From the NCBI GenBank assembly GCA_963798085.1, contig CAWCRS010000009.1:31525-95524 (forward strand): DNA of 64,000 nucleotides, read 5' to 3'. The stretch comes from an uncultured Gemmatimonadales bacterium (GTDB taxonomy: Bacteria > Gemmatimonadota > Gemmatimonadetes > Longimicrobiales > RSA9). Made by a program: the position numbers and the translations under genes. The notes beneath the pieces were generated by a model. The model was not told the origin of the DNA. It saw nothing but the letters and a program-made list of their open reading frames with translations, and did not search any database. Shown here one piece after another: positions 42,421 through 46,042 of the stretch. Position 1 is the stretch's first letter. Each line of letters opens with the position of its first letter.

Positions 42421-43399
42421 ATGCAGAGGGTTCGAACACCCCTGCTTGTCGTCCTGGCGGCCATCGCTGGTTGCGCTCGAGGCGCGCCAGCAGCTTCCGG
42501 TCGCATTGTCCTCGCGGACCAGCGACGGTATCCCTGCTCGCTGGTGGTCGAGCCGACCGGTATCGCGCTGCGCAGCGACGTCAACGGTACGACACCCGAC
42601 GCCGGCGCTTCGGCGGCGCGCGACAGCCGCGGGCGCTTCATTACGAGCACCTCAGCGGGCGGAACACTCGCCCTGTGGACGCCCGCGGGCGTGTTCGACC
42701 GGATGCTGGCGCGGCCCGGGCGCGGGCCAGGCGAACTCGTCGGCTACGTCAATGTTTTCGTTGCCGCGGGCGACACCATCTACGCGCGCGACAACACGGC
42801 TCGGATCAGTGTGTTCGCTCCGGATGGCTCCTTCGTTCGTCGCTTTCCGGCGCGCTACGCGGGCGGAATGACTGGCAGCACGCTGTTTGGTTCGAATGGC
42901 GAGATCGTGTCTGCGGCAGCCAGCGCAGCGGCAGACTCTCGCGCCTGCTTCCACGTGTCCGATCATGAAGGGAACCACATCCGGTCCTTCGGCCAGCTCG
43001 ATACCGAGGACAGCGTCGCGTTCGCGGAAAGACTGCTGACTCTCGTGTCGGACCATTCACCGCGAGGCACCCTCTGGGTGGCCGTGAGGCGGGGTTCGCC
43101 GCGCGGCTACGAGCTGCAGGAGTGGTCCATCGCGGGAACGCGACTGCGGTCCATCCACCGCAACGCATCATGGTTCCCCATCCACGAGTGGCCCGCGCCA
43201 TTGCGCGAGCGACCGGGCGGCACGGTGTTCGGCGTACACGTGGACAGCCTGGGCCGGCTTCTCGTGCACGCCACGGTGCCAAACGCACGCGTGGTTGCCA
43301 CCGCGCGACGGTGAGGGCACGAAGCTCGAATACTTCGATCAGCACATCGAAGTGATCGACTGCCGGAGCCTCAACCGCCCGCCACGGCGGGCACGATAA
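42421..43399 (+). CDS. Beta-propeller lipoprotein, frameshifted near 43290 and possibly truncated
   Basis: IAGC lipobox, GRGPGEL, DSLGRLLV; +1 frame reads WLPPRDGEGTKLEYFDQHIEVID and stops at about 43399 inside moaD. Confidence 0.6.
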
Positions 43400-43646
43400 T
43401 CACTTCGTCGCCATCCGCCACGGTCACTGCGAACCCGCCCCGCAGACGCACATCCTCGTCGTTCAGGTAGTACACGACGAACTCGTAGGGATTGCCCTGT
43501 GCGTCGCGCAGTCGCGGCGCCAGCGCGGGAAACCGGCTGGACACGTCGGCCACCGCTTCGCCCAGTGTTGCCCCCGCCGCCTGCAGCTCGCGCGCGCCAC
43601 CCGCCAGCTCGGCCAGCACCTTCGGTAACTGTATGGTTATCGCCAT
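43371..43646 (-). CDS. MoaD/ThiS/CysO-like ubiquitin-fold sulfur carrier
   Basis: 91 aa, YLNDEDVR, C-terminal IVPAVAGG. Confidence 0.92.
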   Translation of the reverse strand: MAITIQLPKVLAELAGGARELQAAGATLGEAVADVSSRFPALAPRLRDAQGNPYEFVVYYLNDEDVRLRGGFAVTVADGDEVIIVPAVAGG

Positions 43647-43782
43647 CTGTCCGACTCCTCTCGTTGGTTCCGTTTCGCAAACGCCCTTCGTTGTTGCATA
43701 ACGCTGTATTACAGTCCGGTGCGTCGGTTCCGGTCACAAATCAGGCGACGACGGGGCTTCATGATTCCGGCGCGCCGTGACG

Positions 43783-45179
43783 TCAGGCCGCTTCCGCCAG
43801 CGCCGCGACTTCGCGCAGACGGGGTGAAATAATGGGCGATTCCGGCAGCACGCTGGCCGGGACTTCCACGGTCTTGAGGCCGTTCCCCGTGATGCACAGA
43901 ACGACATCGTCGTCCGGCCGGAAATGGCCGGCGGCAGCCAGGCGCAGGGCCGCGGCAACGGTGACACCACCCGCAGTTTCGGCGAACACGCCACACGTCT
44001 CGGCCAGCAGGCGGATCGCCGCGATCAGCTCCGCATCGCTCACGGCGGCCGCCCAGCCGCCGCTCTCGCGAATGGCGCGAATGGCGGTGGGTGCATCCGC
44101 GGGATTCCCGATAGCGAGCGAGCGCGCAATCGTGGCTGGAATGACGGGCTGTATGCGGCGCGGCGCCGCTCTCGACCGCGCGCACGATCGGTGCGCAGCC
44201 TTCCGCCTGTGCGCCGAAGAGGCGCGGCAGCTCGCCTTCCGCGAGTGCAGCGTCGCGCACCTCGCCGAAGCCTTTCGCGAGTTTCGTGACCAGTGAGCCG
44301 CCGGCCATGGGTGCTACCACGGCACTCGGGAATCGCCAGCCGCACTGTTCGGCGATCTCGAACGCCATCGTCTTCGAGCCTTCGCCGTAGTAGCTGCGCA
44401 GATTCACATTCACGATGCCCCAGCCGAAGCGGTCGGCAACCTGTGCGCACAGCCGGTTCACATCGTCGTAGGTACCTCGCACCCGCACCAGGCGAGGCGC
44501 ATACACGACCGGTGCCGATGATCTTGCCCGGCTCGAGGTCCGCGGGAATGAAGATCCAGGCGGTGAGGCCAGCGCGCGCGGCGTGCGCCGCGACCGCATT
44601 GGCGAGGTTGCCCGTCGATGCGCAGCCGATGGTGTCGAGGTGAAAACCCGCGGCGGCATTGATGGCGCTGGAGACGACGCGATCCTTGAAGGAGAGCGAT
44701 GGATGCGAGACCGCATCGTTCTTGATCCACGCGCTCGCCACGCCCAGTCTGGCCGCGAGTGCAGGCGCTTCCAGCAACGGCGTGAAGCCGCTGTCCGGCG
44801 AGTGCAGCGGTGCGCCGTCGTAGGGCAGCCACTCGGCATAGCGCCAGAGTGAAGGCGGGCGGCGCGCGATTTCGTCGCGCCCGGGCAGCGTGCGCTGCGC
44901 ATCATAGACGGGTTCGAGCGGACCCAGGCAGTGGGCGCAGATGGCGAGCGGCTCCGCGGCGAAGTGCGCGCCGCACGCCTTGCAGGACAGCGGGTGAGGG
45001 ACCGGGGGTATCGCCCCGCCTGTGCGCCCCGAGACGGCCACTCTGGTGGAACGATCCCTCGCCGGCTGGCAGCCGGGACGTTCACCGCCACCTCCCGCAT
45101 CACTCGACCCTGTGAATGCGAGGGCAGCGGTGCCCGCCCCGGCAAATGCCGTCGTTGCTGCTGCGGTCTGCTGACTCAT
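43783..45179 (-). CDS. thrC: Threonine synthase-like PLP enzyme (fold II), frameshifts near 44510 and 44160
   Basis: CKAC...CAHC ribbon, SLWRY, GFTPL, HPSLSFKDR, ASTGNLA, YYGEGSKTMAFE, FAETAGG, ITGNGLKT. Confidence 0.88.
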
Positions 45180-46042
45180 GCGTTAGCTCCTGTGAGGCGA
45201 GCGAGGTGGATTTCCGCCTCGCACGCGGGATCAATGGCGTAGCAGTGTTCCGGACCCGGGAAGCGACCGGCGCGCACGTCGTCCGCGTATTCGCGGAACG
45301 CGTTCTCGACCGTGCTGCCCAGATTGGCGTAGCGTTTGACGAATCGGGGTGCAATGTCGCCGACGAAGCTGCCCAGCAGATCGTGCGAGATGACGAGCTG
45401 CCCGTCGACATGCGGGCCGGCGCCAATGCCGTACAGCGGGATGCTGAGCCGTTCGCGCACGAGCGCCGCCGTCTCGGCGGGCACTGCTTCAATCAGCACC
45501 GCAAACGCGCCCGCATCCTCGAGCTGTTGCGCGGCATCAGCCAGGCGCCGTGCGGCAGCCAGAGACCGTCCCTGCACGCGATAACCGCCGAGCTGGCCGA
45601 GGCTCTGCGGCGTGAGCCCGATGTGACCCATCACCGCAATGCCGGCATCCACCATGGCGCGCACACGCGGTACCACCGCTTCGCCACCCTCGCACTTCAC
45701 GGCATCGCAGCCGGCCTGACCCACGAAGGCGCCGGCACTGCGTACCGCCGTCTCATCCGATGGCTGATAGGAGAGAAATGGCAGGTCGCCGATCACGAAG
45801 GCCCGGCGCGCAGCGTGCGCAACGGCGCGTGCGAACACCAGCATCTCGGTCATCCCGATGCCGAGCGTGTTGGGCAGACCGAGCATGGTCATGGCCGCCG
45901 AGTCGCCGACCAGGAGCATGTCGACACCCGCACGGTCTGCGAATGCCGCGGTCGGATAGTCGTAGGCCGTGAGGAAAACGGCGCGTTCGCCTTTTGCCCG
46001 CTTGGCCGCGAGTGTCGCGACCGTCACCTTGCCGCCTGCCAT
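45176..46042 (-). CDS. panB: 3-methyl-2-oxobutanoate hydroxymethyltransferase
   Basis: LTAYDY, LLVGDS, GDLPF.SY, AVKCEGG, MGHIGLTPQ, GIGAG, DGQLV..HDLLG. Confidence 0.95.
   Translation of the reverse strand: MAGGKVTVATLAAKRAKGERAVFLTAYDYPTAAFADRAGVDMLLVGDSAAMTMLGLPNTLGIGMTEMLVFARAVAHAARRAFVIGDLPFLSYQPSDETAVRSAGAFVGQAGCDAVKCEGGEAVVPRVRAMVDAGIAVMGHIGLTPQSLGQLGGYRVQGRSLAAARRLADAAQQLEDAGAFAVLIEAVPAETAALVRERLSIPLYGIGAGPHVDGQLVISHDLLGSFVGDIAPRFVKRYANLGSTVENAFREYADDVRAGRFPGPEHCYAIDPACEAEIHLARLTGANA

Follow-up and report, generated by a model that had tools for sequence, protein, structure and literature searches.

A PanB paralogue behind a SAM-II riboswitch in Gemmatimonadota and a possible route from pyruvate to homoserine

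The operon and its leader

The stretch of DNA analysed here, called the window throughout, comprises 64,000 nucleotides (nt) from an uncultured Gemmatimonadales bacterium (assembly GCA_963798085.1, contig CAWCRS010000009.1, positions 31,525 to 95,524), and it carries an operon of three genes, panB2, metM and metO, preceded by a leader with an S-adenosylmethionine (SAM) riboswitch aptamer. The first gene encodes a paralogue of the ketopantoate hydroxymethyltransferase PanB, the second a member of the ThrC family and the third a small sulfur carrier. On the open reading frame map, genes and leader all lie on the minus strand, and the operon ends after metO because the next gene downstream sits on the other strand. 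The features, in window positions and in the direction of transcription, are as follows.

46380..46408, minus strand: sigma-70-like promoter match (TTGACA, 17 nt, CATCAT), a match to consensus only, with one site found against 0.5 expected
46300..46368, minus strand: SAM-II (SAM_alpha) riboswitch aptamer, from Rfam RF00521 and our own model R1
46274..46305, minus strand: intrinsic-terminator-like hairpin and T run, read as the expression platform (8 pairs, 7 of them GC, then TTTTTTTGTT)
46043..46273, minus strand: structured spacer between terminator and panB2, with a 14-bp GC hairpin at 46120-46085 and a fold z-score of -3.8
45176..46042, minus strand: panB2, a PanB-family paralogue and proposed pyruvate hydroxymethyltransferase, from family match, clade, residues and gene context
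43783..45179, minus strand: metM-like gene of the ThrC family, carrying an N-terminal CxxC...CxxC motif, its frame interrupted by single-base insertions near 44510 and 44160
43371..43646, minus strand: metO-like sulfur carrier of the ThiS/MoaD fold, 91 amino acids with a C-terminal GG (PF02597, 47.5 bits)

The TGA of panB2 overlaps the ATG of metM as ATGA at 45179, and the metO product, which ends in ...AVAGG, is 54-69% identical to the carriers of related clusters. An earlier note on this DNA, made from the letters alone, had described an operon of panB, a thrC-like gene and a GG-ending carrier; the overlap and the carrier stand, whereas the ThrC-like gene, in which the note missed the two insertions, does not form a single open frame.

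The same note placed the genes behind a leader responding to SAM or methionine, and the aptamer and terminator-like hairpin bear this out. The RF00521 match, at 46311-46359 of the minus strand, is marginal, its 36.5 bits only just exceeding the gathering score of 36; R1, derived from 23 related leaders, gives the window leader 80.5 bits over 46300-46368. The SAM-II core is invariant across the 23 aligned leaders; the P1 stem shows no variation among them, so that covariation is uninformative. By blastn, the aptamer and terminator portion is kept in related leaders, and the spacer that follows (46043-46273) shows no conservation in related loci. In those loci the spacer is only about 110-130 nt long, which makes the window's spacer of about 230 nt unusually long as well as strongly folded. 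A remnant of an aminotransferase gene was sought in it, behind the terminator, and none was found. The best explanation of the locus is an operon for a methionine precursor, predicted to be switched off by SAM.

Conserved context in Gemmatimonadota

Scanning one genome for each species yielded 80 loci, from which eight belonging to other phyla were set aside. The context of the remaining 72 Gemmatimonadota loci was tallied by protein searches and with our own aptamer model. The aptamer lies upstream of panB2 on the coding strand in 60 of the 72 (56 of 61 when only loci with 1.5 kb or more of upstream sequence are counted), and a class-I aminotransferase gene adjoins panB2 in 40 of the 72. Fifty loci extend at least 3.4 kb downstream: metM, metO and moeZ occur in 36 of these, thrB in 23 (a GHMP kinase; TIGR00191, 190-192 bits against a cut-off of 168) and a canonical-type ThrC instead in five (296 bits), while nine hold none of these genes. 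The commonest order is aptamer, aminotransferase, panB2, metM, thrB, metO, moeZ; the window carries the shortest version, with aptamer, panB2, metM and metO. The linkage is conserved in dozens of genomes.

The linked aminotransferase falls below every curated equivalog. It scores 279-292 bits with the aspartate transaminase model (cut-off 617) and 240-285 bits with the model for GntC, which acts on a gamma-hydroxy amino acid (cut-off 415).

Several loci depart from the common order. At L079, L083 and L084 the aptamer stands between the aminotransferase gene and panB2, and no methionine gene follows within 5 kb; judged from this arrangement, panB2 may be alone under predicted SAM control there. 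In one sublineage (L067, L074, L075, L076, L078, L082) a threonine synthase of canonical type (TIGR00260, 296 bits), which has no zinc-ribbon N-terminus, comes after the SAM-II aptamer and panB2, and metM, metO and moeZ are absent. At L033 and L037 (about 9700-10600) moeZ is followed by a gene for a HAD-IB phosphatase, SerB-like but scoring 85 bits against a cut-off of 144; a 54% identical homologue occurs in the window's own assembly, G000, at C3:453043-453765.

Neither a PanB paralogue behind a SAM riboswitch nor a natural route to homoserine through 4-hydroxy-2-oxobutanoate was found described in the literature searched, Hasebe et al. 2024 and its supplements aside. Nor was any account found there of the conserved module in which PanB2, under predicted SAM control, is joined by the aminotransferase and thrB.

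PanB2 is a separate paralogue

The product of panB2 (288 amino acids) belongs to the PanB family by three profiles: PF02548 gives 330 bits, TIGR00222 gives 271 bits (cut-off 207.55) and NF001452 gives 325 (cut-off 272). It matches the solved PanB enzymes (EC 2.1.2.11; PDB 1OY0, 1O66, 3VAV, 3EZ4, 1M3U) at 180-222 bits, the top score being that with PanB of Mycobacterium tuberculosis, and it shares with them the Pfam and TIGR families and the catalytic and metal residues. It differs from them in falling into a separate clade, in lacking linkage to pan genes, in lying behind a SAM riboswitch and in carrying changed residues in the pocket motifs.

The genome does hold the second panB that the earlier note had suggested looking for. 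This copy scores 377 bits, is directly followed by panC and is 47% identical to PanB2. For a tree, 116 sequences were reduced to 51 by keeping one PanB2 row in three and one canonical row in two, and this tree separates the two kinds: PanB2 forms a clade of its own (support 100/99), and the canonical PanBs of Gemmatimonadota make up a second one (100/100). Closest to the PanB2 clade among outsiders are PanB-like proteins of Bathyarchaeia (97/88). More than 120 public clusters are at least 74% identical to PanB2, and all those with a named source are called Gemmatimonad-. A full-length canonical PanB is also present in 40 of 50 PanB2 genomes, with fragments in two more, and neither panC, panD nor panE, within the families searched, was ever found beside PanB2 in the 72 loci. 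Placed outside the clade of the pantothenate pathway and not linked to pan genes, PanB2 is, we infer from comparative genomics, not a pantothenate enzyme.

The distribution of PanB2 around this genome is sparse. Within the genome's own order it occurs in six of 301 genomes, in two of them at just 57% identity, and among 40 near relatives only G016 has it. The layout in G016 is that of the window, with aptamer, panB2 and an intact metM frame of 446 codons. The genomes G016 (locus L022), G043, G064, G177, G388 and G487 are flagged as unpublished.

The PanB-like proteins of other phyla, 52-59% identical to PanB2, were considered as further methionine-linked members and rejected, as no methionine context was found around them. 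Their neighbours are glycan clusters with a thiamine pyrophosphate (TPP) enzyme and a DegT aminotransferase, a nonribosomal-peptide-synthetase-like gene, a TRAP transporter, or panE. Two of them, L107 and L109 from metagenome-assembled genomes of Gammaproteobacteria, are 56% identical to PanB2 and lie in glycan-type clusters, with an acetolactate-synthase-like TPP enzyme directly upstream and a DegT aminotransferase and a family-2 glycosyltransferase nearby. They may represent another non-pantothenate use of the fold.

The seven catalytic or metal-binding residues (D47, S48, D86, K116, E118, H140 and E185 in window numbering) are invariant in all 73 PanB2 sequences. Comparison with 35 canonical Gemmatimonadota PanBs brings out the following differences.

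Position 49: A in PanB2, L or V in canonical PanB; E. coli position 47
Position 70: F in PanB2, H in canonical PanB; E. coli equivalent not mapped
Position 117: C in PanB2, L or I in canonical PanB; E. coli position 113
Position 186: A in PanB2, L in canonical PanB; E. coli position 182
Position 204: Y in PanB2, I in canonical PanB; E. coli position 200
Position 219: S in PanB2, L in canonical PanB; E. coli position 215

In addition, PanB2 has a one-residue insertion at 226-232. Motifs described in PMC13488298 surround the ketopantoate/pantoate pocket of E. coli PanB, and positions 49, 204 and 219 fall in or beside the motifs given there. F70 and S219 are changes specific to PanB2. The changes in the pocket motifs are only a hint as to the substrate that PanB2 might use.

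PanB2 and the missing homoserine dehydrogenase

The genome of the window (6.23 Mb in 12 contigs, 67% GC, 90% complete) appears to lack homoserine dehydrogenase. The profile of that enzyme, PF00742, matched all 14 control genomes and has no match in this assembly, and tblastn with the Hom proteins of two relatives found nothing. The search for a substitute enzyme gave only weak matches to PF03447 (32 bits or less). Nor was metX, which the earlier note had named together with other methionine genes, found in the 90%-complete assembly.

Other PanB2 genomes seldom have hom either. Of 50 PanB2 genomes only five yielded a hom gene but 47 a thrB gene, so that gaps in the assemblies do not account for the missing hom. 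No more than about 3 kb separates thrB from panB2 in 25 of these genomes, 23 of which have no other thrB match. PanB2 is too rare in the genome's own order for a test of co-occurrence, and an even sample of the family of G045 was used instead. There, two of 25 PanB2 genomes have hom against 71 of 126 without PanB2 (Fisher p = 4.9e-6, with shared ancestry ignored).

A contrast is also seen within the genus. The genome G001 has no PanB2 and carries instead a metX-hom-cysH-cobA cluster (L119), and none of the four genes of this cluster has a tblastn match in the window's assembly. The two congeners appear to differ both in their route to methionine and in sulfate assimilation. At another locus, L164 of G013, a thrB-thrC pair has beside it, in divergent orientation, a gene resembling ornithine cyclodeaminase and one of the ThiS family.

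The MetM/MetO route in this genome

Synthesis of homocysteine by MetM and MetO has been reported for Streptomyces albulus (Hasebe et al. 2024, Appl Environ Microbiol 90:e0124724, as cited in PMC13759103 and PMC12172450). In the route as these two papers present it, MoeZ thiocarboxylates MetO, and MetM makes homocysteine from O-phospho-L-homoserine; Table 2 of PMC13759103 lists Streptomyces MetO, Mec, MoeZ and MetM with experimental evidence. The likeness of the window, drawn from gene anatomy, extends to a ThrC-family enzyme besides the housekeeping ThrC, a neighbouring carrier of the ThiS/MoaD fold with a terminal GG, a SAM riboswitch in front and, elsewhere in the genome, a MoeZ-type E1 enzyme and a JAB (Mec-type) protease. 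The difference is that a PanB paralogue leads the operon here, and that the window's relatives add the aminotransferase, thrB and moeZ to the same operon. The metM/metO pair thus seems to fit the published route and is to that extent known. The earlier note's suggestion that the ThrC paralogue makes carrier-bound homocysteine gains support from the operon anatomy but is not new, being the route of Hasebe et al.

The remaining parts are found in the genome. An intact housekeeping thrB-thrC pair lies at C7:506273-508320 (thrC, 299 bits), so that metM is additional to the housekeeping threonine synthase; its own closest solved relatives are threonine synthases (149-175 bits). The thrB of this pair is the only one found in the genome. 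A single ThiF+rhodanese E1 (268 bits; 66% identical to a rhodanese-bearing MoeZ from one of the clusters) adjoins the single Prok-JAB match on the same contig as the window, about 170 kb from the operon. Both belong to a row at C9:244909-247875 of the minus strand that comprises a CysM-like PALP gene, a Mec-like JAB gene, a partial ThiS match and the MoeZ-like gene. The row resembles a CysO-type cysteine cluster, and its E1 could also serve MetO. In the CysO/CysM/Mec/MoeZ system of M. tuberculosis, cysteine is made from O-phosphoserine. Thiocarboxylated ubiquitin-fold carrier, rhodanese-domain E1 and JAB protease are shared with that system, whereas the window's pair would act on O-phosphohomoserine.

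A third ThrC-family gene, at C2:62532-63511 of the minus strand, has an N-terminal CxxC zinc-ribbon-like start of the PRK08197 type and is split over three frames; no ThiS-family gene was found on its contig. A PF01053 gene of the MetY/MetB type is present elsewhere in the genome.

Homoserine from pyruvate

Homoserine arises from aspartate semialdehyde, and some anaerobes bypass homoserine en route to homocysteine. A different origin of homoserine has been engineered in E. coli as a synthetic homoserine cycle, which relies on a 4-hydroxy-2-oxobutanoate aldolase and a transaminase. PanB itself transfers a hydroxymethyl group from 5,10-methylene-tetrahydrofolate (methylene-THF) to C3 of a 2-oxo acid (PMC7770189). 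If pyruvate were the acceptor for PanB2, the product would be 4-hydroxy-2-oxobutanoate, which an aminotransferase would turn into L-homoserine. Many relatives would use the dedicated aminotransferase of the operon; in the window's genome a general one would be needed. ThrB would then phosphorylate homoserine and so feed MetM, a MoeZ-type E1 would thiocarboxylate MetO, and MetM, with the thiocarboxylated MetO, would convert O-phospho-L-homoserine to homocysteine. On this scheme the six genes of the relatives' operon aminotransferase-panB2-metM-thrB-metO-moeZ would encode all steps from pyruvate to homocysteine, and no gene would be left over.

There is a partial precedent in an engineered strain. 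According to bioRxiv 10.1101/2025.02.17.638773, overexpressed PanB of Pseudomonas putida partly rescued a hom-deletion strain given a one-carbon (C1) source, 4-hydroxy-2-oxobutanoate transaminase activity being endogenous in that species; PanB is thus among the enzymes reported there to work in part. The proposed intermediates are the same in the synthetic cycle and module and in the route suggested here, from pyruvate and a C1 unit through 4-hydroxy-2-oxobutanoate and homoserine to O-phosphohomoserine. The synthetic module is man-made and uses free formaldehyde and aldolases, whereas the present route, if the reading is true, would be natural, would draw on methylene-THF as donor and would end in homocysteine.

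From the comparative sequence data, we give an even chance to the proposal that this is a SAM-off operon for a methionine precursor in which PanB2 makes 4-hydroxy-2-oxobutanoate from pyruvate and so feeds MetM and MetO. The comparative data thereby favour what the earlier note had offered as its more speculative reading of PanB, hydroxymethylation of pyruvate to give a homoserine precursor. A shade more tentative is the wider proposal that many Gemmatimonadota make homoserine from pyruvate and folate-bound C1 units, and not from aspartate, by means of a dedicated PanB paralogue and a dedicated aminotransferase, both encoded with thrB, metM, metO and moeZ in a single operon behind a SAM-II aptamer.

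A number of observations weigh against the proposal. The window operon contains neither an aminotransferase gene nor thrB, and the best match in the genome to the dedicated aminotransferase is only 33% identical; metM, moreover, is broken as assembled and could be a true pseudogene. The residues are ambiguous: Y204, C117 and A186 are common to the PanB-like proteins of other phyla, in unrelated contexts; a relative with F at 204 adjoins panE; and, by alignment, A49 and T31 occur in the genuine PanB of M. tuberculosis as well. The hom counts ignore relatedness and include genomes, reached through loci, of unstated completeness. Absence of hom is also found apart from PanB2, since 14 of 39 PanB2-free relatives, five of them single-contig genomes, have thrB and no PF00742 match (G004, G008, G010, G013, G017, G023, G024, G025, G027, G029, G033, G035, G039, G040), and no shared substitute gene was found beside thrB of five hom-less relatives. 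Conversely, G016, G356 and G459 carry both PanB2 and hom. Finally, PanB2 as the sole source of homoserine would put the supply of threonine under SAM control, which would be odd.

Alternative explanations

The alternative that survives best concerns this genome alone: metM may be a true pseudogene with two real frameshifts, and the route dead here. We regard such local decay as unlikely. The PALP/ThrC match is split over three frames, from 45179 to about 44511, from about 44509 to about 44161 and from about 44159 to 43783. Set against six relatives, the window is longer by a single base near 44510 and by another near 44160. Relatives carry all three pieces in one frame, and in the window the third-position GC signal shifts along with the same frame switches. 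Two independent +1 insertions within 1.4 kb are what decay might leave, and the reduced cluster (without aminotransferase, thrB or moeZ), the rarity of PanB2 in the order and the PF01053 gene elsewhere in the genome would all suit a route falling out of use. The pieces of metM nevertheless remain 58-89% identical to the relatives, with no stop codons and strong third-position GC outside the two sites, and both panB2 and metO are intact.

Moreover, frameshifts are spread over unrelated conserved genes of the assembly. In a survey with proteins from related loci, three of 30 other conserved genes hold eight frame switches in about 35 kb. The ThrC-like paralogue on contig 2, the PF01053 gene and a threonine-dehydratase-like gene on contig 7 are split too. 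Because frameshifts are so common in unrelated genes of the same assembly, the two insertions in metM are, as far as the sequence allows a judgement, quite probably assembly errors. About one fifth of the words sampled occur in a single soil-metagenome study, whose contigs agree at 99% or more with 45061-45510 and with 45902-46364 and miss both frameshift sites; no RNA data set was among the sources listed for these words. The rate in this small survey is about 0.2 frameshifts per kb (e.g. C5:60406-63160, C3:856132-858125, C7:1205333-1206452), and the gene calls and completeness figures of the assembly are affected by such frequent frameshifts.

A second alternative, which we consider improbable, is that PanB2 handles C1 units, acting in reverse or on another hydroxymethyl keto acid and so providing, at low SAM, the 5,10-methylene-THF from which methionine would get its methyl group, with the aminotransferase supplying the keto acid. 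SAM-off control of a folate enzyme would suit the supply of methyl groups, panB2 stands alone behind the aptamer in loci such as L079, L080 and L096, and a gene for GTP cyclohydrolase I lies just upstream in G016. The only obvious substrate, however, would be 4-hydroxy-2-oxobutanoate derived from homoserine, and its use would drain the precursor that thrB and metM of the same operon need. No other C1 gene is regular in the cluster, and the rarity of hom beside the prevalence of thrB in PanB2 genomes would be left unexplained.

It is still less probable that PanB2 is a usual isozyme of ketopantoate hydroxymethyltransferase whose gene shares a transcript with methionine genes, for instance to balance the use of coenzyme A (CoA) and folate: PanB2 does pass the curated PanB cut-offs, keeps all catalytic residues and has the genuine M. 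tuberculosis enzyme (222 bits) as its best solved relative, but this genome has a canonical panB-panC pair as well, most PanB2 genomes keep a canonical PanB, pan genes are absent from its neighbourhood, the phosphohomoserine route requires no acyl-CoA, and neither the SAM-II aptamers nor the anticorrelation with hom would be accounted for.

Implications

The proposal that PanB2 hydroxymethylates pyruvate would, if true, give methionine, and perhaps threonine, an aspartate-independent origin in pyruvate and methylene-THF. It would explain why hom is missing from many soil Gemmatimonadota that keep homoserine kinase. The PanB2 module would match, as a natural pathway, the homoserine cycle built by engineers, would replace homoserine dehydrogenase and would offer metabolic engineering a folate-dependent enzyme from nature to catalyse the 4-hydroxy-2-oxobutanoate step, at present limiting in synthetic C1-assimilation pathways. 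It would also correct the routine annotation of such genes as panB and 'threonine synthase', and predictions of auxotrophy from metagenomes would be the better for it.

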